Source of the DNA: Methanocaldococcus sp. 28A
GTDB lineage: Archaea; AGJL01; Methanococci; Methanococcales; Methanocaldococcaceae
DNA length: 64,000 nt
Reading direction: 5' to 3' (one strand)
Assembly: GCA_049852185.1 (NCBI GenBank)
Contig: CP187540.1
A program made the translations under genes and the position numbers. Below, one piece after another: positions 1 through 41,388 of this stretch. How positions within the stretch are numbered: position 1 is the first letter of the stretch; each line of letters begins with the position of its first letter. Below the pieces are notes generated by a model, which was not told the DNA's origin, made no database searches, and saw nothing but the letters and a program-made list of their open reading frames with translations.

Positions 1-887
1 ACTACATCAGCATCTACTGGATGTTCTTTAGCTAAAATTTTTCCAATTCTCTTTCTAACCTTATAGACGCTAATACCATCAATTGTTGAATCAGGTCTTG
101 CAAAATACACATACTCAAACATACACGTTGTAGCTCCTTTATATATTGAAGGCATATCATTATTCACAGGATTGTATTCAGGAATTTCATAATCCAATTT
201 ATGAGATATCATTTCTCCATTTTTAATTTCTATAATCTCTCCTGGCTCAATATCTTTAACAAATTCAGCATCTAAGGTAGTTAATGCACAATCCTCAGAT
301 GATATGTAAATATTGCTATCATCTCTTCCAATACACAATGGTTTAAATCCCCAAGGGTCTCTAACAGCAATTAAAGAATCATTAAACATTATTAAAAGTG
401 AATAAGCTCCAACAAGTTTTTTCAATGTATTTTTTATTGCTTCAATCTTATCAGATGTTTTCAACAACTCTCTAACTAAAAGTTGAGCTATAACTTCAGA
501 ATCTGTTGAGGATGTGAATATATGCCCTTTCATCTCTAATTCTCTTCTTAATTCATTTGAATTTACTAAATCTCCATTATGGGCTATGGCTATATTGCCA
601 AATGAACTTTTAACAACAAACGGCTGACAGTTTTCAACAGCCTTTCCTCCAGTTGTTGAATATCTTACATGTCCAATTCCTATATATCCAAATAAATTTT
701 GCAATGTCTCATTTTTAAAGACATCTGTAACCAATCCAATATTTTTATAGTAGTGTATGTTTTTTCCATCACTTGTAGCAATTCCAGCACCTTCTTGCCC
801 TCTATGTTGTAAAGCAAACAATCCATAATAAATTCTCTTAGCAACGTTCATTTTTTCGTAAGAATATACGCCGAATATCCCGCACAT
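1..887 (-). CDS. purF: Amidophosphoribosyltransferase, 5' part (gene runs off the window's left edge)
   Basis: Not in the ORF track. The minus strand reads MCGIFG..ALQHRGQEGAG..GHVRYSTTG..AHNGDL..RDPWGFKPL; gene is adjacent to purM. Confidence 0.95.
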   Translation of the reverse strand, partial: MCGIFGVYSYEKMNVAKRIYYGLFALQHRGQEGAGIATSDGKNIHYYKNIGLVTDVFKNETLQNLFGYIGIGHVRYSTTGGKAVENCQPFVVKSSFGNIAIAHNGDLVNSNELRRELEMKGHIFTSSTDSEVIAQLLVRELLKTSDKIEAIKNTLKKLVGAYSLLIMFNDSLIAVRDPWGFKPLCIGRDDSNIYISSEDCALTTLDAEFVKDIEPGEIIEIKNGEMISHKLDYEIPEYNPVNNDMPSIYKGATTCMFEYVYFARPDSTIDGISVYKVRKRIGKILAKEHPVDADV

Positions 888-1030
888 ATTAAAAACCCAA
901 TTTATTTTTGTTTTTTAATTTAGTAAATATATGCAGGAATAAATGTTTTAAGGCATCTAAATACAGAGAATATATAAAAAGAAACTAAGAAAAAATTAAG
1001 AAAACTAAAAAGTTAAAATCTATCCTCGAT

Positions 1031-2083
1031 TTACTCTAATATAATGAACTTATCGTTGTATTTAACAACTGATTTACCTACAACTTTTTTTCCATTAACT
1101 TCTAAGCTATCTACAACTCTACCTATTATCTGAGCTGGGATATTATATTTATTAGCTATTTTTATAACTTTGTTAGCATCTTCTTCATCAACAATTACAC
1201 AGAATCCAATACCCATATTAAATGTTCTAAACATCTCTTCATCTGGAACATTTCCTAATCTCTGGATTTCTTTAAATATTGGTAATGGTTCTGGAAGGTT
1301 ATTAATATAGTAAATTACTTTATCATTCAACCTCTTAAGTTTTCTAAAGCTACCTCCAGTTATGTGGGCTAAACCTTTAACATTAATATCCTTATCTCTA
1401 ACCATCTCTAAAACTGGTTTTACATAAATCTTTGTTGGTGTTAATAGCTCTTCGGCAACGGTCTTTCCATAAGAGAGCTTGTCATTAATATCTAACTTAG
1501 CTATGTCAAAAAATACCTTCCTTGCTAAAGATAACCCATTACTGTGTATTCCTGAGCTTCTTAATCCAACAATTACATCTCCTGATTTAACATCTTTTCC
1601 ACTTATAATTTCATCTTTTTTAATTATTGCTAAAACAGTTCCTGCCAAATCAATTCCTTTAATCATGTCTGGTAAAGTGGCTGTTTCTCCACCAACAATA
1701 TTTATATTTGCCTCCTTAGCTCCTTCATTTAATCCCTTTCCAATTTGCTCAGCTATCTCTTCAGTTATATGCCCAACTGCTAAGTAATCAACCAATGCTA
1801 TTGGTTCTGCTCCTATACAGATAGCATCATTTACATTCATAGCTATCATATCTATTCCAACTGTATCAAACTTATTAGCCATCTCTGCAACTATCATCTT
1901 ACTTCCAACACCATCAGTAGATAAAACTAAATAATAATCTCCAAACTCAACAGCTCCTGCATAATGCAATCCTAACTCAGCGGGCTTTATATCTTCCCTT
2001 TTAAATGTTATCTGTGAAACTAATGCCTTAATTACTCTATCTTCATGTGATATATCTACTCCTGCATCTTTGTAAGTAACCAT
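1031..2083 (-). CDS. purM: Phosphoribosylformylglycinamidine cyclo-ligase (AIR synthetase)
   Basis: Motifs YKDAGVD, TDGVGSK, GGETA, SGIHSNG, AHITGG, TFNMGIG. Confidence 0.97.
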   Translation of the reverse strand: MVTYKDAGVDISHEDRVIKALVSQITFKREDIKPAELGLHYAGAVEFGDYYLVLSTDGVGSKMIVAEMANKFDTVGIDMIAMNVNDAICIGAEPIALVDYLAVGHITEEIAEQIGKGLNEGAKEANINIVGGETATLPDMIKGIDLAGTVLAIIKKDEIISGKDVKSGDVIVGLRSSGIHSNGLSLARKVFFDIAKLDINDKLSYGKTVAEELLTPTKIYVKPVLEMVRDKDINVKGLAHITGGSFRKLKRLNDKVIYYINNLPEPLPIFKEIQRLGNVPDEEMFRTFNMGIGFCVIVDEEDANKVIKIANKYNIPAQIIGRVVDSLEVNGKKVVGKSVVKYNDKFIILE

Positions 2084-2120
2084 AATAATCTCCTCAAATT
2101 ATTTTTTTTCTAAGAGATTT

Positions 2121-2999
2121 TTACCTTTTTAACAATACATTATCTCCTACATTAACACCAATGTTCTCAGCAACTGGCTTACATTTTGCCTTCAATATAT
2201 AATAAACTGGCTTGTCTATCCTATTTTCATATTCTGTTAAACTTTCATAATTGCCCATTCCTTTTGCTATAATTAAATCAGCACTTTCAAACTCTTTTAA
2301 AAATTCTTCTGAACACTCTTCTAAAATAATTCCTATAATATCTGAGCCTGTTGTTATTACTTTAGCTATCTCATCAATCTTTGCTATTTTTGCATCCTCT
2401 AATGTAGCATCATTTAGAATTGGTTTTCCTTTAACAACTGCAACAATATCTTTGTTATATTTTTTAATCTCTTCCATTAAAATCCTATCAAAAATAATCT
2501 CTCCAGCGTTATCACATATATATAAAATCTTTTTTATGTTTTTATCTTTTAAATCATTTAAAAGCTCTTTGCTATTATCTATCTTTAACTCCCCATTTAA
2601 TGTATCTTCAATTAACTTTTCAATATTTATCCCTGTGCTGTAAGCCCCAAAGTCAATAACATTCCCTGCTATTGTTGCTAAAACCTTCTTTCTCAATCTC
2701 TCAATTTCATCTTCTATATTACTCATTTCTCTAACTTTATCTAAATACTGCAAAGCTATTTTGTTTGCTTTATCTTTTAAATTTTTATAAGGGTCGTTGT
2801 TATTGCTAATTTTCTTTAAATATCTATGAACTATAGTTCCCATCCATGCTGGAACTGCACTCTCACCATAAACATCTTTAATAACTTCCATAGTACTTTT
2901 TATTAATCTAAATTGCTCTTTCTCATCAGCGGTTATTTCATTGACAGCATCAACAACCTGCCTTATTATACATATAGCACATTCTGGCTTTAGTTTCAT
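2121..2999 (-). CDS. DUF89/ARMT1-family damage-control phosphatase
   Basis: N-terminal CxxC plus GNxIDFG, DNAGE, LND and KGMGNYE motifs. Confidence 0.88.
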   Translation of the reverse strand: MKLKPECAICIIRQVVDAVNEITADEKEQFRLIKSTMEVIKDVYGESAVPAWMGTIVHRYLKKISNNNDPYKNLKDKANKIALQYLDKVREMSNIEDEIERLRKKVLATIAGNVIDFGAYSTGINIEKLIEDTLNGELKIDNSKELLNDLKDKNIKKILYICDNAGEIIFDRILMEEIKKYNKDIVAVVKGKPILNDATLEDAKIAKIDEIAKVITTGSDIIGIILEECSEEFLKEFESADLIIAKGMGNYESLTEYENRIDKPVYYILKAKCKPVAENIGVNVGDNVLLKR

Positions 3000-3082
3000 A
3001 ATTATCCCTCCACGACATAAGTTTTGTGTAAAGGTGATTATAATTAAATTAAGTAATAAAATTATATCATAAGGCGATAGAT

Positions 3083-3565
3083 ATGATTAACCTCGAAATA
3101 TTTAAAGAATTTCTACTAAACCTTATAAAGGATTATGGATATTTTGGCATTTTCTTAGTGGGATTTTCTGAACCAATATTTCAACCTTTTCCAACAGAGA
3201 TATTTATTGCCGCTGGATTATTAGCTGGATTAGATTGGAGGTTGGTTTGGATTATTTCAACAGTTGCTTGCAACTTTGGGGCTGCAGTTACCTATTATCT
3301 TGCAATGACTTATGGAGAAAAATTAATGTTAAAGTTATTTGAAAAGGAAAAAATAGAAAAAAGTAGATATTATATAAAAAAGTGGGGTATTTTAGGCGTT
3401 ATTATTCTAAGTTTTACCCCTATACCTTTTGAAGTAATTTGTTGGGTGTGTGGAAGTTTAAGGATGCCATTTGATGAATATATGGTAGCAGTATTTTTAA
3501 GTAGGCTAATTAGGCATGGGATGGTTATTCTACCATTTGTTTTAAAAAATCACATTCATTTTTGA
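3083..3565 (+). CDS. DedA/YqaA (SNARE-associated) membrane protein
   Basis: Hydrophobic; FSEPIFQPFP and FTPIPF motifs; paralog of the N-terminal half of 30252..31265. Confidence 0.85.
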   Translation: MINLEIFKEFLLNLIKDYGYFGIFLVGFSEPIFQPFPTEIFIAAGLLAGLDWRLVWIISTVACNFGAAVTYYLAMTYGEKLMLKLFEKEKIEKSRYYIKKWGILGVIILSFTPIPFEVICWVCGSLRMPFDEYMVAVFLSRLIRHGMVILPFVLKNHIHF

Positions 3566-3566
3566 G

Positions 3567-3678
3567 TATAGCTTTGTGTAAAAGTTTTTATGAAAAAACG
3601 GCATTAATGAATATCTTTTCAAAAGGAAGGCATTTAAATTGTCCTTATAAAGTTTAATTTATTTTGCACAAAGCTATA
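3567..3678. repeat. ~110-bp palindromic intergenic repeat, family A (MJRE/MITE-like), copy 1
   Basis: Ends TATAGCTTTGTGTAAAA ... TTTTGCACAAAGCTATA (16/17 inverted match); shared core GGCATTAATGAAT..TTC..AAGGAAGGCATT. Confidence 0.85.
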
Positions 3679-3731
3679 ATACTATAAACAAAAAATTTCA
3701 TAAACAGAATTTTATATTAAAAACTATTATC

Positions 3732-3843
3732 TATAGTTTTGTGCAAAAGTATTTATAATGAATAAGGCATTAATGAATGTCTTCCTTTTAGAAGACATTT
3801 AAATTTTCATTATAAAGTTTATTTTGTTTTGCACACAACTATA
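3732..3843. repeat. Family A palindromic repeat, copy 2
   Basis: TATAGTTTTGTGCAAAA ... TTTTGCACACAACTATA with the same internal core. Confidence 0.85.
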
Positions 3844-3859
3844 TTTTTGGTGATGAAAT

Positions 3860-4108
3860 ATGTGTTTGGCTATTCCATGTAAAGTTGTTGAGATTATAGA
3901 GGAAGATGGAGAAAAATATGCAATAGCAGAATATAAAGGAGTTAAACAAAAGGCAAAATTAACACTCTTAGATAAAGAGGTTAAAATAGGAGATTATATA
4001 TTAATCCACACTGGTTATGCTTTAGAGGTTTTAAGTGAAGAAGATGCCAAATTAAGTTTAGAAGCTTGGGAAGAGCTATTTAAAGCATTAGAAGAAATGG
4101 AACAATAA
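3860..4108 (+). CDS. hypC: [NiFe]-hydrogenase maturation chaperone HypC
   Basis: MCLAIP N-terminus; [11 protein letters not shown]. Confidence 0.96.
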
Positions 4109-12394: not shown

Positions 12395-13801
12395 TTATTT
12401 TTTTCTGTATTTTGGATGGTATTTCTCAATTAATTCTCTATCAACTCTTTTCAACTCTTCTTCTGGTAATATAGCTAACAACTCCCACAACAAGTCAAGA
12501 GTTTCTTCAATACTTCTGTCTTCATCTTTACCTTGTCTAACAAACTTATCTTCAAACTCATCTGCAAATCTTAAGTATGCTCTATCTCTATCTGTCAATG
12601 CCTCTTCCCCAACGACAGCAACTAAATCTCTTAAACTTCTACCTTCTGCATATGCAGCATAAGCCTGATTAATAACTTTCTTGTGGTCTTCTCTTGTTTT
12701 TCCTGGACCCTGTCCGTTTCCAGCCAATCTTGATAATGATGGAAGGACATCAACTGGTGGATAAATCCCCTTTCTGTGCAATTCTCTTGAGAGAACAATC
12801 TGTCCCTCTGTAATATAACCAGTTAAGTCAGGAATTGGGTGGGTAATATCGTCATCTGGCATTGTTAAGATTGGAATTTGGGTGATTGTTCCAACTCTTC
12901 CCTTAACTCTACCAGCTCTTTCGTATAAAGTTGCCAAGTCAGTATACATGTAACCTGGGTAACCCCTTCTTCCTGGAACCTCGTTTCTTGCTGCTGAAAT
13001 TTCTCTTAAAGCCTCACAGTAGTTTGTCATATCTGTTAATATAACGAGAACGTGCATATCTTTCTCATAAGCTAAGTATTCAGCAACAGTTAAAGCAATT
13101 CTTGGTGTTAGAATTCTTTCAATTGCAGGGTCGTTTGCCAAGTTAATAAAGACGACTGCTCTTTCTAAAGCTCCAGTTTTTCTAAATTCTTCCATGAAGA
13201 AGTTAGCTTCCTCTGATGTAATACCCATAGCTGCGAAAACTACTGCGAATTTCTCTCCTTCTCCTCTAACTTTTGCCTGCCTTGCAATCTGAGCTGCTAA
13301 TTGGTTGTGTGGCAAACCAGAACCTGAGAATATCGGTAATTTCTGCCCTCTAACTAATGTGTTCATTCCATCGATTGTTGAAATACCTGTTTGGATGAAA
13401 TCACTTGGAACCTTTCTTGAAACCGGGTTTAATGGATAACCGTTAATATCTAACTCTTTCTCAGGAACTATTTCTGGTCCTCCATCAATTGGTTTTCCTC
13501 TACCATTAAATATTCTTCCAAGCATTTCCATTGAAACTCCAATCTTAGCAGTTTTTCCTGTAAATCTTACTTTTGTTTGGTTTGTACTCAACCCAGTTGT
13601 CCCCTCAAATACCTGAACAACTGCCAAGCCTTCTCTTGCCTCTAAAACTTGCCCCATTCTCTTCTCTCCATCTGGAGTAATAACTTCAACAATCTCCCCA
13701 TAAGCTGCTCCTTCAACACCTTCAACAATTAACAAAGGTCCTGCGATACTCTTAACTGATGAATATTCTATTGCTGATGTAGTTGCTGCCACTTTCATCA
13801 C
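12395..13801 (-). CDS. atpB: A1Ao ATP synthase subunit B
   Basis: [28 protein letters not shown]. Confidence 0.98.
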
Positions 13802-13879
13802 CTCAATAAAAAGTTTGTAAAGTTATATGGGAGGATGTTAAAAGGAAATTTAGTTTTTAGTTAATTGGTATTAGCAAAT

Positions 13880-15643
13880 TTAGTTTAATGAACCTAATTC
13901 ATTCTTAACTTTCTCCATTATCTCTTTTGATTTAATATTTATGAATTCATCGTGTGGGATATATTTCATTCTTGCAATATCTTGCTTAACTGAAACTTTC
14001 AATATTTTAGCTGGGTCTACTCCTCTTTCCACAGCTTTCAATGCCTCTTGGTAGAATGTCATAATTATCTTTAACATTAAGTATTGCTTCATTGGAGGGC
14101 AGTATGTATCTACTTCATCAAATGCATCTTGCTGTAAGAAATCTTCTCTTAGCATTCTTGCTACTTCTAAGATAACTCTCTCCCTATCTGGCAATGCATC
14201 TGGCCCAACCAACTGAACAATCTCTTGCAACTCTGCTTCTTTCTGCAATAATCCCATTGCTTCATCTCTTAACTGTCTCCAATCTGGTCCAGTATTTGTG
14301 TTCCACCACTCTGTGACATCATCAATATATAATGAATAACTCTGCAACCAGTTAATAGCTGGGAAGTGTCTTCTTCTTGCTAAGTTAGCATCTAACGCCC
14401 AGAATACCTTAACAATTCTTAGTGTGTTTGATGTAACTGGTTCTGAGAAGTCTCCTCCTGGTGGTGAGACTGCCCCAACAATTGAAACGAACCCCTCTCT
14501 ATTATCTTTTCCTAAACAGATAACTCTTCCAGCTCTTTCATAGAACTGAGCCAATCTTGAAGCTAAGTATGCTGGATATCCTTCTTCCCCTGGCATCTCT
14601 TCCAATCTACCAGAAATTTCTCTCATAGCCTCTGCCCATCTTGATGTTGAATCTGCTGTCAATAACACCCCATAACCCATATCTCTAAAGTACTCTGCAA
14701 TTGTAATTCCTGTATAGACAGAAGCTTCCCTTGCAGCGACAGGCATGTTTGATGTGTTTGCAATTAATACAGTTCTATCCATCAATTTGTTTCCTGTTTT
14801 AATATCCTCTAAGTGTGGGAATTCTTCAATAACCTCTGTCATCTCGTTTCCTCTTTCTCCACATCCAATATAAACGACAACGTCAGCATCACTCCACTTA
14901 GCTAATTGATGCTGAGTAACTGTTTTTCCAGAACCGAATGGACCAGGAATTGCTGCTGTTCCTCCCTTAGCTAAGGTGAAAAAGGTATCTTCAACTCTCT
15001 GTCCTGTAATCATTGGGATTTTTGGAGGTAACTTCTCTTTATATGGTCTTCCTTTTCTTACAGGCCATTTTTGCATCATTGTTAATTCTTTTCTTTCTCC
15101 ATTCTCTAATTCAACAACTGCAACAGTCTCCTCAACAGTGAATTTTCCTTTTTTTATTTCAACAATTTTTCCTTTAACTCCAACTGGAACTAATATTTTA
15201 TGAACTATTGAAGGGGTTTCATCAACAGTACCAATGATGTCTCCTTCTTCAACATAGTCCCCTTCATTTACAACTGGCTTAAATTCCCATTTTATATCTC
15301 TTGGTAATGCAGGGACATCAACACCTCTTGGGATAAAGATTGAACCAGTTTTCTCTTCAATTGCTGTCAAAGGTCTTTGTATACCATCATACATCGCTCT
15401 TAACATTCCCGGACCCAATTCAACTGATAATGGAGCACCAGTCCCAACAACAGGCTCTCCTGGACTAATTCCAGAAGTTTCCTCATAAACCTGAATGACA
15501 GCCCTATCATCTTGCAACTGAATGATTTCTCCAGTTAATTTCTCTTCTCCTACCTTAACAACCTCATACATCTGAGCTCCTTTCATTCCTTCTGCAACTA
15601 CAACAGGTCCAGCAATTTTGATAATCTTACCAACAACTGGCAT
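13880..15643 (-). CDS. atpA: A1Ao ATP synthase subunit A (no intein)
   Basis: [24 protein letters not shown]. Confidence 0.98.
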
Positions 15644-31494: not shown

Positions 31495-31962
31495 TTATTT
31501 CTCCAACAAATTAGCAATTCTATCTAAATTCTCTGAGATTTTAATTAATATCTCACTTTGTTTATCGATTTTAACATTCAACTCTTCTAATGAACCAAAG
31601 ATTAATTTTATATACTTAACACCCTCATCCAACTTTTTATTTAACTCTAACAAATCATCTGCTGATATTCTATTAATCCCATCTGGAAACTCAATGTATG
31701 TATTTAGTTCTCTCTCTTCAATCCTTTCTATTTTTATAAGGTTATCAACCTCTTCTAATTCTTTAATTAATTCTTTAAACAATCTTTTTTTTCTTTCTGA
31801 ATCAAAGTTTGCTAAAATTCTAACAGTCCCATCTTTGTAGTTATAAATAATTCCATTAATGCCTAAGCCCCTACCTATGTGTTCAATCCTATCTATAAAT
31901 CCAACATGTTGAACCTTCCCATAAATGATTATCTCATAAGTCGTTGCCATAACAATCACCAC
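31495..31962 (-). CDS. Acylphosphatase-like domain protein with a C-terminal coiled coil
   Basis: [18 protein letters not shown]; heptad-repeat tail. Confidence 0.8.
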
Positions 31963-31999: not shown

Positions 32000-33457
32000 T
32001 TAAGTATATTCTTTAGCAATTTTTTCAAGTTTGTTTTTAATTTGTTCTTTATAATCTTCTTCTGTAGGTCTAAATGCAAATATCTCTAACATACTGGATG
32101 ATTCAATACACTTATCTAAGTCATTTTCATGTATTTTGAATTCTAAATATTCAGCTAAAGTTTGTTCCTCTTTATTATCCGTTATAACTTTAATATCTGC
32201 TTGAACATCTCTTGTAAATACTGGAGGCAACATATTCTTAAAAATTATAAAGGTAAATTCTGGATTTATGCTCTCAAGTTCTTCCTTAATTTTAAGAAAT
32301 AATTGCTTATCATATTTAAGTATTCCAAATTCTTCTAATTTAAGTTCATAGTATCTTTTTGGTAAGCTTCTTTTCAAAAAATTCTCAATCCAAAATTTAA
32401 CATTTAAATCTTTATATTTATTGTCTTCCAGTTCTAATATCTCTTTAAGAAACAAATTATCTGTCCAAAATGAAAAATTAAGTAAAATTTCATCAGTTAA
32501 TCTCTTGGAAGAATCATCATCTATTGGAAGAATTTTTTTGATATCTTCCTCATCTAATTTATCAAATGCTTCAGATAGTATTCTAATTAACATAGCATCA
32601 GTAATGTTTCGAACATGATGCGTATAAACATTCTTATACATTTTATATCTGGCTATTCTTAAACTCCATGTTTCAATCGCTCCTTTTGGTGATACACCTA
32701 ATGTAAAATCTTCACTTATTCTAACGTTTCTCCACAACCTTTCTAAATCATAGTATCCATACATAACACCACAATGATACGAATCTCGCAATAAATAGTC
32801 CCCCTTATCAACATCTAATGAACTATCTATTATACTTCTTAGTATTTTTTGGAGAAAAGTTAAATCTTCTATCTTGTAATCTTTATTAAGAACACGTAAA
32901 ACAGTATTTGCTACAGCCTCTTTAACTTTTTTATAATCTCCAGAATCTGGACCTGAAAGATAACATTCTCTTATTATATGTTTTGCTATCTCAAAACCTA
33001 CTCTTTCATGATTGTAATTTAAGTCTTTTTTTGTGTAATTTAGAGAATCCTCTAACGTATGGCTAAATGGTGCATGACCAACATCATGTAACAATCCAAT
33101 TAATCCTGCTGAAGCTACAAAGAATTGATTTTTCATCTCATCAGATTTTAGATTTTCAGTATTAGGGTCATCATCAATAGCATTGTATATCCTTTCCTTA
33201 GAGATATCATCATTCAGCAAGGTTATTGCTATCAACATTGAAAGATACATCGTGCCTATTGAATGCTCAAATCTTGAGTGTTGGGCAGAAGGATAAACAA
33301 GCTGTTCAAGTGGTAGTTGGCTAACCCATCGTAACCTTTGAAGATATTTAATATCAATTACCTGAACAAATTCATAAGGAACTTCGATAAATTTATATAT
33401 TGGGTCCCTAATTAGCTTAACATTATTTGATGGGAAATATTTAGATACAATATACAT
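32000..33457 (-). CDS. HD-domain phosphohydrolase (SAMHD1/YwfO-like dNTP triphosphohydrolase family)
   Basis: QRLRWVSQL, HSRFEHSIG, LLHDVGHAPFSH, HE, DVDKGDYLLRD, RYKMYKNVY. Confidence 0.9.
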   Translation of the reverse strand: MYIVSKYFPSNNVKLIRDPIYKFIEVPYEFVQVIDIKYLQRLRWVSQLPLEQLVYPSAQHSRFEHSIGTMYLSMLIAITLLNDDISKERIYNAIDDDPNTENLKSDEMKNQFFVASAGLIGLLHDVGHAPFSHTLEDSLNYTKKDLNYNHERVGFEIAKHIIRECYLSGPDSGDYKKVKEAVANTVLRVLNKDYKIEDLTFLQKILRSIIDSSLDVDKGDYLLRDSYHCGVMYGYYDLERLWRNVRISEDFTLGVSPKGAIETWSLRIARYKMYKNVYTHHVRNITDAMLIRILSEAFDKLDEEDIKKILPIDDDSSKRLTDEILLNFSFWTDNLFLKEILELEDNKYKDLNVKFWIENFLKRSLPKRYYELKLEEFGILKYDKQLFLKIKEELESINPEFTFIIFKNMLPPVFTRDVQADIKVITDNKEEQTLAEYLEFKIHENDLDKCIESSSMLEIFAFRPTEEDYKEQIKNKLEKIAKEYT

Positions 33458-33481
33458 TTATCCTCCCCCACAATAACTAAT

Positions 33482-33985
33482 TTAAGTATTTTTAATTATT
33501 TCCTCAATTTTTTTCATTTTTTCTATTAATGATTGAATTTTATTATCATTTAATGAACTTAATTCCGTCCAGCCCAATATTTTACTCTTTAATTTCATTA
33601 ATTCGATATCTTCCTTTGAAAGTGCCTCATCTCCTTTGTCTTTTTTTATCGTATATAATATATAGTTAATTTTAGCTAATAGTGATATTTCCTTAACTGA
33701 AATGTTCTCATTCTTTATGAACTCTATTAGTTTGTCAATTTTACTTTTGTATTCATTACTACTTTCAATTTCTTTTTCCCAAATAGAAACTAATTTTGGA
33801 TTCACCTCTAAATATTGTATAACCCTCTGTATATTCGGACTGTATGGTCCATATAAATAAGGAATATATAGCTCCTTACGTAGTTCTGGAAATATAAAAT
33901 ATGTAATTTTTTGCACGTATGTTCTCCCATACATTCCGTTTTCTTTTAATTTGTTAATTATATATGCAATTACACCCCTTATCAT
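33482..33985 (-). CDS. YwgA/SocA(Panacea)-like winged-helix protein
   Basis: GRTYVQKITYF and YIPYLYGPYS motifs; 24 bp upstream of the HD gene. Confidence 0.65.
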   Translation of the reverse strand: MIRGVIAYIINKLKENGMYGRTYVQKITYFIFPELRKELYIPYLYGPYSPNIQRVIQYLEVNPKLVSIWEKEIESSNEYKSKIDKLIEFIKNENISVKEISLLAKINYILYTIKKDKGDEALSKEDIELMKLKSKILGWTELSSLNDNKIQSLIEKMKKIEEIIKNT

Positions 33986-34265
33986 GAATATCCCTCTTTC
34001 GTGCTCTTAATTTATTATTTTAAATTATAATAGAATATAATAAGAAATATATACAATATTCGGTTATTTAGTATTTCTTTTTTTCGATTTTTTTCTCTTT
34101 GCATATTTTATCACCTCTTTTTTATTTGTGTTATATTTTGTTTATAATATTTATAGCCAAACCTTATTTGGTATCTTCTACATCTACGAAAGTTGCCCTA
34201 ACTACGTAATAAAATAAAACTCAACAAATTGGCTTTATTTTTGTGAGATATGGTTTAATATTTTT

Positions 34266-34485
34266 AGTTGCACTAAGTTGCAAATAGTTGCAAAATATTT
34301 CACGAAGTTGCAGGCAAGTTGCAGAGTTTTTCGCTATAAATAAATATATTAAATATATATAATATAAATAAAAAAATATAACTTGTTATTATATTATATT
34401 TTTATATATATTATATAAGTGCAACTTTTGCAACTTTTCTCTTTTTTCCGAGTTTTTTGCAACTTGTTTGCAACTTACTGCAACT
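34266..34485. promoter_or_regulatory. Putative replication origin: 5 AGTTGCA, ~85-bp AT-rich core, 5 inverted TGCAACT
   Basis: AGTTGCA at 34266, 34276, 34286, 34306, 34317; TGCAACT at 34420, 34429, 34458, 34469, 34479; three more AGTT(G/A)CA at 34637-34663. Confidence 0.75.
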
Positions 34486-34711
34486 ATGCCTTAAAATCAA
34501 TAAATTGCAATAATAAAGAATTATAGGCAATTGTTCAAAAAAATAAGGATTTTTAGGACTTTTAGAAAATTGAACATTATCAGACATTATTGTTGAGTAT
34601 TCTACATATTTTTAATAAATTATTCTGATTTTACAAAGTTACAAGAAAGTTGCAAAAGTTACAAAGAAATATTTAATTATTTTTGTTATTTTGTTAATTT
34701 GTATATTTGGA

Positions 34712-35047
34712 TTAAATATTAGATGATATTAGATTAATTAATAATGATTGTTTTTTAGGAGTAAGTTCTGGAATAACCTCTTCAAGCATATACAATAAAA
34801 CTGCTTTTTTACCTAACTCGGTTAGTTTGCACATTCTTTGAGGTAACCTATATCTTGATTCTTCTTCCCATGTATTTATTAACCCTTCTTCTTCCAGTTC
34901 ATTTAACCTCCTCGTTAATGAGCCATCAGGAATGTGCGTTAATTTTTTGAGAGTCCCATAATTCATTGTTCCATGTTTATAAAGCGTTAATAAAATTTCT
35001 TTAACATACTTTTTTCCTAAAATTGATATTAACCCCATAAAAATCAC
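34712..35047 (-). CDS. Winged-helix (HxlR/ArsR-like) regulator
   Basis: ILGKKYVKEIL..LTRRLNELEEEGLI..LTELGK. Confidence 0.85.
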   Translation of the reverse strand: MIFMGLISILGKKYVKEILLTLYKHGTMNYGTLKKLTHIPDGSLTRRLNELEEEGLINTWEEESRYRLPQRMCKLTELGKKAVLLYMLEEVIPELTPKKQSLLINLISSNI

Positions 35048-35081: not shown

Positions 35082-35414
35082 TTAACAACTACTTTCTATA
35101 ACTTTATCTCCATAAATAATCTTAATTGGTTTTTTATCATCTTTCTTTAAAATATTACAAAGTTCATAAACTATTAAGACTCTTTTACCAAAATCAGTTA
35201 GTGAATAGTAAGTTTTTGGTAATAAATTTCCAGCATCTTCTCTTCTTTTATTAAGTATTCCAGCATTTACTAATTCTTCTAACACATTTCCTAAGGTTCC
35301 CTTGTGAATTTGTAAATCCTTATGAAGTTGCCCAAAATGAACTTCGCCATGAATTGCCAAATATTGAAGGATTTCTTTAACATGTTTTTTTGCAAGTAGT
35401 TTTATAAGGTCCAT
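35082..35414 (-). CDS. Winged-helix (HxlR/ArsR-like) regulator
   Basis: LAKKHVKEIL..LEELVNAGIL..YYSLTDFGK. Confidence 0.85.
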   Translation of the reverse strand: MDLIKLLAKKHVKEILQYLAIHGEVHFGQLHKDLQIHKGTLGNVLEELVNAGILNKRREDAGNLLPKTYYSLTDFGKRVLIVYELCNILKKDDKKPIKIIYGDKVIESSC

Positions 35415-35439: not shown

Positions 35440-35817
35440 TTATATACTTGCATGTGCATTATTTGTATTAACATCAAATGTAATTTTATTCTCCCCAGCA
35501 ATTTCTAAACTGACTGTGCTTATTAAAGACTCTTTTTCTAATTTATCAACAATGTCTTCAATTTTATAGAGAATTAAAGCACTTCTACCTTTTGGAGTAA
35601 TCCCGTAATAGGATTTTGGTAATTTTTGTCCAGTATCAACTTCCCATTTTTCAACAAGACCAGCTTCTATAAGTTCATTTAAAATATTTGTTAATATTTT
35701 CGAATTTATCTTTAATGTTTTTTGAATTTCACTAAAATACATATTCTTTTTGTTTAGCAGTTCTAAAATCTCTCTTGCATGTTTTTTTGCCAATATTTTA
35801 ATTATCATTTCTCTCAC
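35440..35817 (-). CDS. Winged-helix (HxlR/ArsR-like) regulator
   Basis: LAKKHAREIL..LNELIEAGLV..YYGITPKG. Confidence 0.85.
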   Translation of the reverse strand: MREMIIKILAKKHAREILELLNKKNMYFSEIQKTLKINSKILTNILNELIEAGLVEKWEVDTGQKLPKSYYGITPKGRSALILYKIEDIVDKLEKESLISTVSLEIAGENKITFDVNTNNAHASI

Positions 35818-35986: not shown

Positions 35987-36175
35987 ATGTTGAAAGTCCA
36001 AAAAGAAACTTGGAAAAAACCAAGAAATGTAAGAATAGCTTTAGTAGGGTACATCAAAGAGCAAGGAAACTCTGCAGGATTTTATCCTTACATTCCTAAA
36101 GAATACATTGGAAAAAGAGCATTATTAATCATAGATTCAGACGATGAAGAAGAATTTGAAAAAATTAAAAATTAA
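35987..36175 (+). CDS. DUF2080-like small (AbrB-like) protein associated with mobile elements
   Basis: GNSAG..YIPKEYIGKRALLII; AGGTGA RBS. Confidence 0.7.
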   Translation: MLKVQKETWKKPRNVRIALVGYIKEQGNSAGFYPYIPKEYIGKRALLIIDSDDEEEFEKIKN

Positions 36176-36184
36176 GGTGATAAC

Positions 36185-37444
36185 ATGGATGAAGTTAGCG
36201 AAAAAATCTTATCATATTTATCAAAAGTAAATAAAGCATCCAATAGAGAATTGGCTGAGGAACTTGGGATTAATAAAGGGACCATATCAAAAGTTTTAAG
36301 AGACCTCCAAGATAGGGGAATAATCAAAGTTGTAGGACAAGAAAGTAAGACCAAATACTACGCCCTTGTTAGACCCTTCCAACAAGCCAGTAGTGATGAT
36401 AACCAAATTCAACACATCCAAATCCCAAAGGATATTAACACAATAACAGGTATTAGAGCTATTATTAGGAATGCTTTAAGTCAGAATAATTGGCATTCTA
36501 CATCTTATAGTCTCCCATTAACAGCACTCTTAATTAGCAAATACACAAATTTGAGGTTAATTATCTTTGGCTCTCAGTATGTAGGAAAAACAACATGTAT
36601 AAAGGCAGTTTATCCTGACTTAGAAAATAATCCAAAAATATTGGTAGATATGCATAGGAAAGACATGTATCAATACATAGACATGGTTAAAGACAATATC
36701 AAAATTATAGAGCAACAATATTTGCACGATTGGAGGTTTGAAGACACTAAGATATTTGATAGGTTTGATGTTGTGCCAAAGTCAAGAATTGCCCCAAGTG
36801 AGTTTTTATTTCGATTCCTTCCTTTAAGAATAAAAATGCCTTCAGAGTTTGATAATGACTTTAAATTCTTTACTTTAGATTTAGATGACTTTAAGATAAT
36901 AAAAACAATTCCTAAAGACATAAAAGATAAATTTATTGAAAAACTCAACCACTTAAAGTTCTTTACAATTGATGTTGGAGCTTGTAGGACGTATTTAGAG
37001 ATTTTAAAAGAGAAAGAAATTGCCAATCTCTACCATGTAGATAGAGAAGGAAACATGGACCAACAGCTTTCAGCAAGGCAGTGGAGGATTGAGAGAGAGT
37101 ATAGTGCAGTATTAAAAAATGACTTCTTAACTGTAAATCATAGAAAATTAAAGGGAATAAACGAGCTTTGGCAACCTGTATCTATGGATAATGGGCTTTT
37201 ACACCATGCATTTGAGATTTTAAGGTTTAGTTACTCATTAAATAAAAATCCAGATGTGGCTGTGGATGATGCCTATAGGTTCATGAAATACATTCTCAAA
37301 ACTTTCACTTTGGTTAAAGAGGATTCCTCAAAGAATAATGTATCATATCCTACTCGAAATGTAGAAAGTGGGGAGGGAGTTTTCAGCATTCCTACTGTTG
37401 GAAGTAGTTATTTCATCCCTGCTAATAAGATGGTAATTCCTTAA
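36185..37444 (+). CDS. N-terminal wHTH plus P-loop NTPase protein, candidate replication initiator
   Basis: NRELAEELGINKGTISKVLRDLQDRG helix-turn-helix; Walker A GSQYVGKT; AGGTGA RBS. Confidence 0.6.
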   Translation: MDEVSEKILSYLSKVNKASNRELAEELGINKGTISKVLRDLQDRGIIKVVGQESKTKYYALVRPFQQASSDDNQIQHIQIPKDINTITGIRAIIRNALSQNNWHSTSYSLPLTALLISKYTNLRLIIFGSQYVGKTTCIKAVYPDLENNPKILVDMHRKDMYQYIDMVKDNIKIIEQQYLHDWRFEDTKIFDRFDVVPKSRIAPSEFLFRFLPLRIKMPSEFDNDFKFFTLDLDDFKIIKTIPKDIKDKFIEKLNHLKFFTIDVGACRTYLEILKEKEIANLYHVDREGNMDQQLSARQWRIEREYSAVLKNDFLTVNHRKLKGINELWQPVSMDNGLLHHAFEILRFSYSLNKNPDVAVDDAYRFMKYILKTFTLVKEDSSKNNVSYPTRNVESGEGVFSIPTVGSSYFIPANKMVIP

Positions 37445-37538
37445 TTATCAAAGGAGGAGGGGTAAATCTGGATAAAATATTGTATCACTTACAGCTTGAC
37501 ATTAAGAGAACATACGAGCTATATAAAATATTAGTCTT

Positions 37539-37793
37539 TTGGTGAGAGGTATGAAAGCTGCTTTTAGTTTATGTAAGAATATAGATAGTAGGATGCTGAG
37601 ATATTATATCCATAAGCTGGAACATCTTGGACATATAGACCCTTTGAAACTTAAGGAGGTTATTGAGGCTAAGAAGAAGTATAGAAAAATTATAACATTA
37701 TCTAACAAAGAGGCTGAGATTTTGAGTAAATATGGAAAAGCATCAAATCTTTACATAAATTATTTAATGTTGGTGGATGGGGATGAGGAATGA
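37539..37793 (+). CDS. MJ0366/DUF2540-like ribbon-helix-helix protein
   Basis: FSLCKNIDSRMLRYYIHKLE..IEAKKKYRKIITL..GKASNL matches my recollection of MJ0366; overlaps the integrase start. Confidence 0.75.
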   Translation: MVRGMKAAFSLCKNIDSRMLRYYIHKLEHLGHIDPLKLKEVIEAKKKYRKIITLSNKEAEILSKYGKASNLYINYLMLVDGDEE

Positions 37794-38766
37794 GAATGAA
37801 AATTTCAATTTTAATCTTTTGCTTATAAAAAAGCCGAGAGGAGAAGAATTTGAGGAAACTGATGAAATTAGACATTGGTTAGAAAAATTTAAAGAGGAAA
37901 GGGAATTCGATGGGATAAAGCCAGAGACTATAAAAGGAGATTTAGCGAGGTTAAAAGTTTTTTTAGGTTTCTGTTATCACAGATTAAACAAATCTCCTGA
38001 TAAGCTTAAAACTCATGATTTTGTTAAGTTTTTCAATTATTTAGAAAAAGAGAGGGGAGTGTCTAAGAATACACAGAGAAAATACTATCTTTTGTTAAAA
38101 GTGTTTTACAAAGTTATGAGGATGCAGCATGTTATAAAAGAGTTTGTTGAAGAGAGTAGGGAAAGAAAGAGGTTTGCTAAGATTGAGATTAAGAAGAGAG
38201 ACCCTGCAGATGCTGAAATAATTAACATGGTCCTACAGAAAATAATGGAGTCAAGGAGTAGAACTAAAATTAGAGATGCTTTGATTATCAGGTTTAAGTG
38301 GGATACTGGTTGTAGAATTTCTGAGATATTAAATCTTAGGTTGAAAGATTGTGATTTAGAGAAAGGAGTTTTTAGAATAACTGATACTAAATCTCATGAG
38401 GAGAGAATTGTAGCATGTAGAGAGGACACATTAGAATTTTTGAGGCAGTATGTTCAATTCAATATTAAGAAAGGACCTAATGATTATTTGTTCCAGAACC
38501 ATAAAGGAGAACAAGTTGATAGAAACTGGATTAGTTATGTGTTTAGGAAAGCTGTTAATGAACTAAAAGAAGAGGGCAAGATACCAAAGAATAAGAGAAT
38601 TGTTTTACACTCAGTTAGGAGTGGGAGAATTATGGATTTGTTGGAAAAACTGCCGATTGATGTTGTGAGTGAGATAGTGGGTCATCACAGCATAGAGGTA
38701 ACTATGAGGTATGTGGATGAGAAAAAGAGATTGAGGGATTATATCAAAATACTTAAAAAAATTTAA
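37777..38766 (+). CDS. Tyrosine recombinase/integrase (MJ0367-like)
   Basis: Full catalytic set: DTGCRISE (R), TK (K), HSVR, GH, TMRY (Y). Confidence 0.95.
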   Translation: MGMRNENENFNFNLLLIKKPRGEEFEETDEIRHWLEKFKEEREFDGIKPETIKGDLARLKVFLGFCYHRLNKSPDKLKTHDFVKFFNYLEKERGVSKNTQRKYYLLLKVFYKVMRMQHVIKEFVEESRERKRFAKIEIKKRDPADAEIINMVLQKIMESRSRTKIRDALIIRFKWDTGCRISEILNLRLKDCDLEKGVFRITDTKSHEERIVACREDTLEFLRQYVQFNIKKGPNDYLFQNHKGEQVDRNWISYVFRKAVNELKEEGKIPKNKRIVLHSVRSGRIMDLLEKLPIDVVSEIVGHHSIEVTMRYVDEKKRLRDYIKILKKI

Positions 38767-38875: not shown

Positions 38876-38963
38876 TGGCGCGGGGGCCGGGACTTGAACC
38901 CGGGCTGGGCGAAGCCCAACGGGATTAGCAGTCCCGCGCCGTACCAGGCTGGGCCACCCCCGC
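38876..38963 (-). tRNA. tRNA-Ser(GCT)
   Basis: GCGGGGG..CCCCCGC-G-CCA, anticodon loop CTGCTAA, variable arm TGGGC-TTC-GCCCA. Confidence 0.96.
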
Positions 38964-39025: not shown

Positions 39026-40048
39026 GAGGTTGTCGAAAAATATTAAACTAATTGATAGTAGATAATACGAAATATGAAGCAGGAAGAAAATAAGAAAAGG
39101 AGAGAGAAAAAGAAAAGTTCCAAGAAGCGGGAGGGATATTGGAAAGCTTACGACCTTAGATATAAGAAATACGACATAGTGGAGAGATATACATTTATTT
39201 TACGTATTATAAATAAGTTAAATCACCCCTCGATAGAAAGACGAAGGGTAGGTCGAGCTCTAGCTATATCCCATAATGAATATATGGCTGTTCAAATATT
39301 AAAACATATCTACACACTTAGTTTGAGAGACTTAGAGACCATATCGAATATCCTACCAGTAAAGCATTCAAACGAATAGATTATACCTCTTTGTCAGCCT
39401 TACTTACCTTTACGTATGTAATTATAGACAATTTACTGAAACAGCCCACCAATAAAATATATATCGCTGACTCCACGGGTGTTTCCATAAATAGATTATA
39501 TATTGAATGTATTTATCGAGGAAAACGGACTAAACGACGAGTGTTTGATAAATTGCATATTTTAGCATGCTATTATCCTAACTATGGCTATATTCCAGTA
39601 GTTGCTGCCCGTTGGGGCACTAATTATAGTTCCGATAGTGCAAACTTATTAGAAATGCTTAAACAAATCGATTTTTTAGATATTGAATATCTATTGGCTG
39701 ATAGTGGATACGATTGCTGTGAACTGTTCGAATACTCACTAAATCACAACATCTCCCCCATAGTTAAAACTAAAGAGTTTAAATGGGATTATAAAACCAA
39801 TAAGGTTAGAAAACGAATCAAAGGTATGTTTAATCAAAATTTATATAGATACCGTGGAGTCGTGGAATCCATTTTTGGTGGGCTGGAAACTAAAAACCGT
39901 CTAAAATTAAACGATAGATTGCTAAATATTAGACGAAACAGCACTATCGCTGTTGCAATAGTACATAATAATATTAATATTAATGAGATTATTCGGTATT
40001 AATACATAATACTTCATGCTCTTCCTAATTCAATTTTTCGACAACCTC
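39026..40048 (+). mobile_element. IS5/IS4-type insertion sequence, ~1023 bp
   Basis: Perfect 16-bp terminal inverted repeats GAGGTTGTCGAAAAAT / ATTTTTCGACAACCTC enclosing a DDE transposase. Confidence 0.9.
39074..40002 (+). pseudogene. DDE transposase split into two frames (39074-39379 and 39391-40002)
   Basis: IADSTG, KLH, LADSGYD, YRYRGVVESIFG; frame change near 39355. Confidence 0.8.
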
Positions 40049-40132
40049 TGGGTAATCATAAACCTTAAATATCTTTTCCCTATATAGAAATAATAAATAA
40101 TTATGTAATATTTCCTTGTAAAGGATGAAAGA

Positions 40133-41388
40133 ATGGATGAAAGAGATATCATAAAGCGATTATTAAAGAATATCAACAAAGAGAAATATATCTGATTCCA
40201 AGAGACATAAAATTACCAAAAACTAATAAAGCAATATCTATTGTTGGAGTTAGAAGGTCTGGAAAAACATCATTACTTTTTGATTTATTTAAAAAAACAG
40301 AAAAATCCATATTCTTCCCATTAGATGATGATAGAATTTTTCCACCAACTATGAAATTGTAAAGGTTGGTAAAGAAATGTATCCAAATGAAAAGATAACA
40401 TTTTTTTTGATGAAATACAAGAAGTTGAAAATTGGGAAATTGTTATAAAAAGATTAGTTGAGAGGGAAGGACATAATGTTTATTTAACTGGTTCATCTTC
40501 TAAATTATTATCAAAGGAAATTGCTACACAATTAAGAGGAAGAAATTTAAGCGTAGAGTTATATCCATTATCATTTAAGGAATATTTAAGATTTAAGGGT
40601 TTTGAGTTTGATGAAATATTGACAGAGCAAGAGAAGGTGTTAATTTTAAAGTATTTGGATGATTATTTAACTTATGGGGGTTTTCCAGAGGTTGTTCTGG
40701 AAGAAGAAAATAGAGAAGAAATTCTGAGGGAATATTTAAGGACAATCATATTTAGGGATATTGTGGAGAGACATAAAATAAAAAATATCCAAATATTGAA
40801 ACTTTTTATTAAATTTTTAATCAACTATCATACAAAAAAGGTCTCTATAAATAAGTTAGTTAATTATTTCAAGTCATTAGGAATAAAAGTCCGTAAAAAT
40901 ACGTTATATGAGTATTTAGAGTATCTCAATGATTGTTATTTTGTTTTTCCATTAAAAAAGTTCTCTTACAGTTTGAAGGAGATAAATCAAAGTTTATCTA
41001 AACCATATATTATTGATAATGGATTTATTAGAATTTTTGACATTAAACATTCGATGGATAAGGGAAAGTATTTGGAAAATGCTGTTTTCGTTGAACTGAG
41101 AAGAAGGGTTATGTTGAAAATGAAAACATATTTTATTACGAAGACACAATAGGAGAGGTTGATTTTTTAATTAAAGAGGATGAAGAAATAAAATGTTTAA
41201 TAAATGTTTGTTATGATTTAAACTTTGATAATTATAATAGAGAAGTTAAAAAATTTGTTAAAATTGGAAAAAAGTTAAATTGTAATAACTTAATTTTAAT
41301 AACTTTTGATTATGAAGATGTTAATGAAGAAGATTTTAAAGTTAAAGTTATTCCATTTTGGAAATGGTGTCTGTTAAATAACTTATAA
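40133..41388 (+). pseudogene. AAA_14/DUF4143-type ATPase pseudogene with several frameshifts
   Basis: GVRRSGKT at 40246, FFDEIQ, LTGSSSKLL, YGGFPEV, DNG, ENAV, EVDF and IPFWKW lie in different frames. Confidence 0.88.

Follow-up and report, generated by a model that had tools for sequence, protein, structure and literature searches.

The window, i.e., the whole 64,000-nucleotide stretch of Methanocaldococcus sp. 28A contig CP187540.1 analyzed here, harbors an array of short repeats within a Methanococcales element that is integrated at a tRNA-Ser gene. A Pfam scan covered 14 open reading frames (ORFs) in and around this element. The element consists of cargo genes, the array, three small winged-helix (wHTH) genes on the minus strand, a DUF2080 gene, a gene for a protein of 419 amino acids, a DUF2540 gene, an integrase gene, and tRNA-Ser(GCT), in this order. 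Database homologs bear Methanocaldococcus names. The features are as follows:

31495..31962, minus strand: cargo gene, acylphosphatase-like protein (PF00708), common on related elements and pMEFER01
32000..33457, minus strand: cargo gene, HD-domain protein, dNTPase-like (PF01966, PF19276)
33482..33985, minus strand: cargo gene, 167-amino-acid protein weakly similar to the C-terminal half of DarG (PADLOC E 7e-6; NCBIfam E 0.002, far below cut-off)
34217..34248, no strand: left flank of the putative origin scaffold, a conserved imperfect inverted repeat
34266..34323, plus strand: left iteron arm, 5 x AGTTGCA (3 distal and 2 proximal)
34335..34418, no strand: AT-rich core, candidate unwinding element with several TATA-like 8-mers (2 G/C in 84 bp)
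34420..34485, minus strand: right iteron arm, 5 x TGCAACT (2 proximal and 3 distal)
34637..34663, plus strand: distal cluster of three sites; relatives have 2 to 3 copies of their own motif there
34712..35047, minus strand: small wHTH protein 1, MarR/HxlR-like (Pfam)
35082..35414, minus strand: small wHTH protein 2, PadR/HxlR-like (Pfam)
35440..35817, minus strand: small wHTH protein 3 (Pfam)
35987..36175, plus strand: DUF2080 protein (PF09853, E 5e-17), encoded upstream of Rep in divergent orientation to the wHTH genes
36185..37444, plus strand: candidate Rep, with a wHTH (residues 1-65, by Pfam) and a predicted MCM-type AAA+ domain (81-378, by structure model)
37468..37536, plus strand: 23-codon gene remnant; a whole gene (176-179 amino acids) lies at the same position in L013 and L016
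37539..37793, plus strand: DUF2540 protein (PF10802, E 6e-25)
37777..38766, plus strand: tyrosine integrase (PF00589, E 5e-29)
38876..38963, minus strand: tRNA-Ser(GCT), right boundary of the element

A duplicate of the 3' half of tRNA-Ser(GCT), i.e., the att partner, is absent from the source genome (G000), and a tRNA 3'-half repeat was not seen in the stretches examined from the genomes G009 and G024. Relatives in G012, G028, G001, and G016 are bounded by perfect 44- to 58-bp copies of the tRNA 3' half. Since the att partner is lost and the gene neighboring rep, by eye a DEDD-type exonuclease, is cut to 23 codons, the copy in the window is probably stranded and no longer excisable, with the array and the Rep reading frame intact. 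Among the 31 proteins of pMEFER01, the acylphosphatase alone matches the window. Homologs of the pMEFER01 gene block are present in G028 and G001, which both carry the 419-amino-acid Rep, and absent from the window and the G012 elements. Because this block accompanies the replication module in only some of the Rep-bearing relatives, the module moves between backbones.

Several further observations were made on the element and its surroundings. The integrase is 96% identical to one adjoining tRNA-Ser(TGA) in G005 (L016); the one in the window adjoins tRNA-Ser(GCT). The pair of HD dNTPase-like and DarG-like genes (32000-33985) recurs in locus L023 and is possibly a defense or toxin-antitoxin module. 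At 39074-40002, the window contains a two-ORF DDE insertion sequence, of which G000 has at least three further, near-identical copies; behind it, at ~40130-41330, lies an ATPase/DUF4143 gene that is apparently frameshifted.

The array is located in a 726-bp intergenic gap. Its left arm consists of five AGTTGCA sites starting at 34266, 34276, 34286, 34306, and 34317 (spacings 10, 10, 20, and 11), and its right arm of five inverted TGCAACT sites starting at 34420, 34429, 34458, 34469, and 34479 (spacings 9, 29, 11, and 10); a distal trio follows with AGTTACA at 34637, AGTTGCA at 34648, and AGTTACA at 34657. All of these sites and spacings, as well as the almost pure A/T stretch between the arms, had been described in an earlier note on this DNA and are present. 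The array thus displays a SaPI-type anatomy with short repeats of opposite orientation flanking an AT-rich core. No other 84-bp stretch of the chromosome is as AT-rich as the core, whose counterparts in the four closest relatives contain 2 to 4 G/C. Within the window, the motif has 29 matches compared to an expected 7.9 ± 3.0, a count reached in 0 of 100 shuffles. The 1.55-Mb chromosome contains 217 sites, and at least four within 300 bp are found at this array only. A chance origin of the array is ruled out by the shuffle counts together with this chromosome-wide uniqueness.

The earlier note had further proposed that the array is symmetric and that its sites are helically phased on one DNA face. 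The layout (3+2, core, 2+3) is indeed mirror-like and is not an exact palindrome. At a period of 10.0 bp, both arms are phased (left arm, R = 0.97, P ~ 0.002; right arm, R = 0.92, P ~ 0.007). At 10.5 bp, the left arm is still significant and the right arm is not (P = 0.19), so that a placement of the sites on a single face of the DNA is firm in the left arm alone. A 58-amino-acid ORF (34411-34587) overlapping the right arm was treated as spurious. An Rfam scan revealed tRNA only, and matches in a sigma-70 promoter scan, using a model unsuited to archaea, were at chance level. The GC skew shifts near 36 kb, coinciding with a change of gene strand.

An alignment of eight arrays showed a shared scaffold of left flank, two arms, AT core, and distal cluster, in which both arms carry exchanged motifs at homologous positions. 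The right-arm motif is TGCAACT in the window and in G009, TGCAGTT in L021, NGTAGCT in L023, SGTATGA in L013, TTGCAAA in L014 (array A) and L015, and ATGAACT in L014 (array B). Such a concerted change at about 10 sites with fixed spacing argues for co-evolution with a binding protein. The left-flank pattern has a single occurrence in each of 5 genomes out of 40 from Methanococcales (0 with the reversed pattern as a control) and also precedes the arrays of L021 to L023. Likewise, the scaffold was found in 5 of the 40 genomes and the 419-amino-acid Rep in 5, with both together in 4. A search of viral contigs with the flank pattern was unspecific, any 6-mer cluster being found at 3 of 120 loci. 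In G009, an AGTTGCA array with 76% identity to that of the window is partly decayed; no homolog of the 419-amino-acid protein was found in this genome, and we read the array as a relic. A variable cargo gene often begins immediately after the left flank, which was also seen in L013, L014, L015, L017, L021 to L023, and L076. The flank might serve in recombination, as a terminator, or as a site for a host factor.

As candidate binders of the repeats, the earlier note had named the 419-amino-acid protein and the three small wHTH proteins, and it had raised the prospect of co-varying iterons next to rep homologs. Such co-variation was found at a few, related loci, where the motif changes with the N-terminal wHTH of the Rep. 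The 419-amino-acid class is represented by only six related loci at which an array as well as a Rep wHTH is available (the window, L013, L014, L015, L021, and L023). The Rep bodies of the window and L013 are 95% identical, their wHTHs 66%, and their motifs are different. In the Reps P0001 and P0007, the wHTHs are 98% identical and the bodies 43%; the wHTH of P0007 is also 98% identical to that of L013. The tree of the wHTHs and that of the Rep bodies disagree, and by these comparisons the wHTH is a swappable module that has been exchanged between Rep bodies. Taken together, the sequences support a motif that follows the N-terminal winged helix of the 419-amino-acid protein and not the small wHTH proteins, which are poor candidates. 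Small wHTH1 of the window is 95% identical to that of L023 and small wHTH3 is 91% identical to that of L021, each with an identical putative recognition helix, yet the motifs differ in both cases.

Binding of the array by a small wHTH protein, here wHTH2, either to an operator or with wHTH2 as an accessory origin-binding protein, is nevertheless an alternative, which we consider unlikely. Arrays usually lie directly behind a small wHTH gene. Furthermore, wHTH2 is 74 to 78% identical to the proteins of L014 and L015, a TGCAA core is common to all three, and the helix is identical in the window and L015, where the Rep wHTHs are only 23% identical. However, with this same helix, 10 of 10 sites in the window read TGCAACT and those in L015 TTGCAAA. 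We also counted 47 small-wHTH genes in the loci examined, excluding the window and four duplicate loci. An exact 6-mer array was found behind 12 of the 14 that have an N-wHTH Rep at a distance of up to 2.6 kb and behind none of the 33 without one; most of these Rep-less controls belong to other genera, and they include L023, the contig of which cuts the Rep and the degenerate array of which is missed by the exact 6-mer test. In addition, small wHTHs that are unrelated accompany one and the same motif. L078 and L105, of the full-MCM Rep class, share GGTTTA with small wHTHs that are 45% identical, N-terminal wHTHs that are 93% identical, and bodies that are 49% identical. ATTCAC is common to L101, L079, L091, and L097, although the small wHTH of L101 is just 28 to 31% identical to theirs; the N-terminal wHTH of L101 is only 38 to 39% identical to those of its motif-mates. 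Finally, in pMEFER01, a CCGAAT/ATTCGG repeat cluster with no adjoining wHTH gene lies just upstream of the MCM gene, inside the origin interval predicted in PMC6972569 (Table S1). Since the C-terminal wHTH is also conserved (75%) between L078 and L105, either terminal wHTH could be the motif reader in the full-MCM class.

With the N-terminal wHTH of the Rep as the preferred reader, we looked at its putative recognition elements. At the six loci, TGC motifs go with GT or GS in the third helix, and GTA motifs go with GL, a pairing that is suggestive only. The Reps of L013, L021, and L023 have a common wing and different motifs, which points to reading by the helix rather than by the wing.

The 419-amino-acid protein is rare, with 9 homologs among 5.8 billion proteins, 9 among 50% representatives, and carriers in 5 of the 40 Methanococcales genomes. 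Its body belongs to no Pfam, NCBIfam, or PHROGs family, and residues 72 to 419 gave no Pfam match to PF00493, the MCM P-loop family. A structure model based on an alignment of 16 rows had a pLDDT of 81.6. In a wide structural search, MCM was the best match (Z = 13.3) and the top seven rows were all MCM, followed by RavA (10.8) and BchI (10.6); the match to 6mii reached a Z score of 14.6 (root mean square deviation, 3.5; 211 amino acids). Foldseek returned no match at E <= 0.001. The model thus suggests an MCM-type AAA+ fold. No Pfam match to the MCM N-terminal OB/zinc domain or to the C-terminal wHTH was obtained in residues 72 to 419, and the model leaves no room for them. Cdc6 families were not matched in Pfam or NCBIfam, and Orc/Cdc6 is absent among the fold matches listed.

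Motif positions were assigned from strand order, without residue-level superposition, and partly from what we take to be the general arrangement of MCM motifs. A Walker A motif, GxQxxGK[TS], is found in 15 of 15 rows and R210, the presumed arginine finger, in 16 of 16. By strand order, the presumed Walker B motif reads EQ in 14 of 16 rows and EE in 2, sensor 1 lacks Asn, the sensor-2 position is variable, and the segments matching the MCM DNA hairpins (H2I and PS1) are about half as long as in MCM. Judged from the model, the protein apparently lacks the catalytic Glu and the DNA hairpins, and its ATPase would be degenerate. The gene fills the slot between DUF2080 and DUF2540-integrase that is occupied by MCM genes in other elements.

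Searches for more distant forms added little. Longer fused Rep forms were not found, which is weak evidence. A PLSDB tblastn search with Rep and wHTH2 as queries gave no match, and in IMG/VR none of 67 candidates from the Rep alignment was confirmed; the small-wHTH alignment returned 2 loci there, both duplicates of elements already in the set. Results from the ESM Atlas (feature scores all <0.8, TM all <0.4) and BFVD (one row at E <= 0.001, TM 0.18) were uninformative.

The 419-amino-acid protein might also bind the array as a partition or DNA-organizing, centromere-like complex instead of acting as an initiator, which appears quite improbable. Co-variation is evidence of recognition and not of replication, the ATPase is catalytically degenerate in appearance, and the wHTH profile matches the centromere protein AspA of pNOB8 (E 8e-5), among many generic wHTH matches. 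In contrast, the Pfam scan of the 14 ORFs revealed no ParA/ParB family among the element proteins, and partition would have no need for an extremely AT-rich, conserved core flanked by inverted arms. Moreover, the slot of this gene is taken by full MCM Reps in other elements, and these obey the same array rule. Highly improbable is a role of the array as a regulated cargo-gene promoter, with the 419-amino-acid protein acting as an AAA+ transcription regulator. In its favor, TATA-like 8-mers lie on both strands of the core, and in the window as well as in L013, L015, L021, L023, and L076, a cargo ORF starts beside the left flank. However, TATA-like words are expected in any stretch of 98% AT, the cargo varies freely across relatives while the scaffold is constant, and of the 15 arrays examined, 5 (L014 A, L014 B, L079, L097, and L101) have neighboring ORFs that both terminate there.

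We favor the reading that the array is the origin of the element, as the earlier note had inferred, and the predicted MCM-type AAA+ fold of the neighboring protein and the co-variation of wHTH and motif lend it strong comparative support. Specifically, the array is probably a SaPI-like iteron origin (theta) of an integrative Methanococcales element, with the 419-amino-acid mini-MCM Rep as its initiator. Rep subunits would bind the ~10-bp-phased 7-mers via their winged helices and oligomerize via the AAA+ domain into one assembly per arm, and these assemblies would introduce a bend into the DNA and melt the AT core. Host MCM may then be recruited; G000 encodes two long chromosomal MCM homologs. 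Because the 419-amino-acid protein is without the MCM N-domain and seemingly without the catalytic Glu and DNA hairpins, host MCM would probably unwind the fork, with about even chances for host MCM and for the 419-amino-acid protein as an atypical helicase itself. As a guess, the distal sites could tune copy number.

A further-reaching and rather doubtful possibility is that the 419-amino-acid family represents an MCM-derived initiator that has shed its helicase function, recognizes its origin by an interchangeable N-terminal wHTH, melts the core, and hands over to host MCM. If true, an Orc1/Cdc6-like role would have evolved from MCM in an archaeal order without canonical Orc1/Cdc6, a natural set of orthogonal wHTH-iteron pairs would be at hand, and a stranded copy like that of the window could fire as an extra chromosomal origin.

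Arrays of other kinds were observed as well. The source genome contains a 10,393-bp contig (C2) with an exact 3,896-bp tandem repeat (unit 1-3896), probably a small plasmid assembled 2.7 times. Its unit encodes one 960-amino-acid MCM-like frame and an acylphosphatase-like protein. Inside the MCM frame, at ~1323-1500, lies a 10-bp-spaced TGCCAAC/GTTGGCA array of mixed orientation, like an origin within a rep gene; the motif resembles TGCAACT of the window. In G009, one tRNA-Ser(GCT) element (L076:8996-9720 and 13357-14300) contains stacked arrays, i.e., the decayed AGTTGCA array, one of TTCTACA, and two of GTGACA, which suggests successive replacement of replication modules. L014 has two arrays, one of them behind a truncated wHTH gene. 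A third Rep class of ~780 to 795 amino acids, with weak AAA matches only, is found at L015:16330-16790 and L017:7596-7919; here, the motifs are ATGACA and AGCGAC, and the array lies at the 3' end of the gene, a SaPI-like position.

For the start of replication in Methanococcales, the available parts of PMC3914693 and PMC5333045 list one origin prediction, which is in silico only. The present analysis supplies a candidate Rep family, a defined ~450-bp origin candidate, and a testable rule tying wHTH to motif. The ~3.3-kb module that extends from the array through rep offers a candidate replicon for use in hyperthermophilic methanogens; in the available part of a review on methanogen genetics from 2024 (PMC11267900), no replicating vector is named for this genus.

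Short opposite-orientation repeats around an AT core, read by the winged helix of Rep, are described for SaPI origins in the accessible portions of PMC9371898 and bioRxiv 10.64898/2026.10.17.759575, and our comparison is confined to these. The array resembles SaPI origins with self-loading Rep helicases (Rep2/SaPIbov1, MCM-like SF6; SCCmec Cch) in a size of ~300 bp, an integrase-bearing island, 6 to 12 short iterons in opposite orientation, and a reader, here a putative one, in which a winged helix is joined to AAA+. Unlike in SaPI, the wHTH is N-terminal (residues 1-65) and not C-terminal, and the array is separated from rep, 1.7 kb downstream of it, by divergent wHTH genes, whereas the SaPI origin is located immediately downstream of rep. 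Also, no primase gene was seen in the element, its host is an archaeon, and the Rep ATPase seems to be degenerate. Given the differences in wHTH position, origin position, and host, and with no primase seen, the array is not a member of the SaPI origins. In PriRep5, the wing reads bases, whereas the wing of the 419-amino-acid Reps is common to L013, L021, and L023 despite their different motifs. The SaPI5 iteron, TGCAAC(C), is nearly identical to TGCAACT of the window, which is probably a coincidence (bioRxiv 10.64898/2026.10.17.759575).

Within Methanococcales, repeat-rich origins without a consensus were predicted for pT26-2 elements, some of which have no Rep, including two tRNA-Ser elements of hyperthermophiles with an origin (PMC6972569, in the part available). 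As in this family (PMC6972569, PMC2926602), the elements studied here combine tRNA-Ser integration, exchangeable replication modules, and repeat-rich predicted origins; unlike it, the window and G012 elements lack the conserved core gene block. The N-wHTH-MCM Reps of the pMEFER01 type (720 to 760 amino acids) occupy the same gene slot and likewise have arrays whose motif follows the Rep. The N-terminal wHTH of the 419-amino-acid protein is weakly similar to theirs (hhalign E 9e-4), and in a profile comparison the wHTH alone was aligned (probability 22%). Unlike the 419-amino-acid protein, each of these Reps consists of a complete MCM, with the N-domain, canonical motifs, and the C-terminal wHTH kept, to which an N-terminal wHTH is added, and the array scaffolds of the two classes differ.

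Chromosomal origins of the Orc1/Cdc6-ORB type also combine inverted protein-binding repeats around an AT core with an initiator of AAA+ and wHTH, according to the available part of PMC5333045. Here, unlike there, each element has its own sites of 7 bp, wHTH and AAA+ stand in reverse order, and the predicted fold matches MCM; Methanococcales are described as being without canonical Cdc6/Orc1 (PMC3914693, in the part available). Thus, the origin type is already known from SaPI, and repeat-rich Methanococcales origins had been predicted, without a consensus, in PMC6972569 as far as its available part extends. In searches of the open-access literature, no listed title or abstract dealt with the 419-amino-acid Rep family or the wHTH-motif rule. 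What is new is a Rep of predicted mini-MCM fold with a swappable N-terminal reader and a pairing of wHTH and motif across Methanococcales elements.
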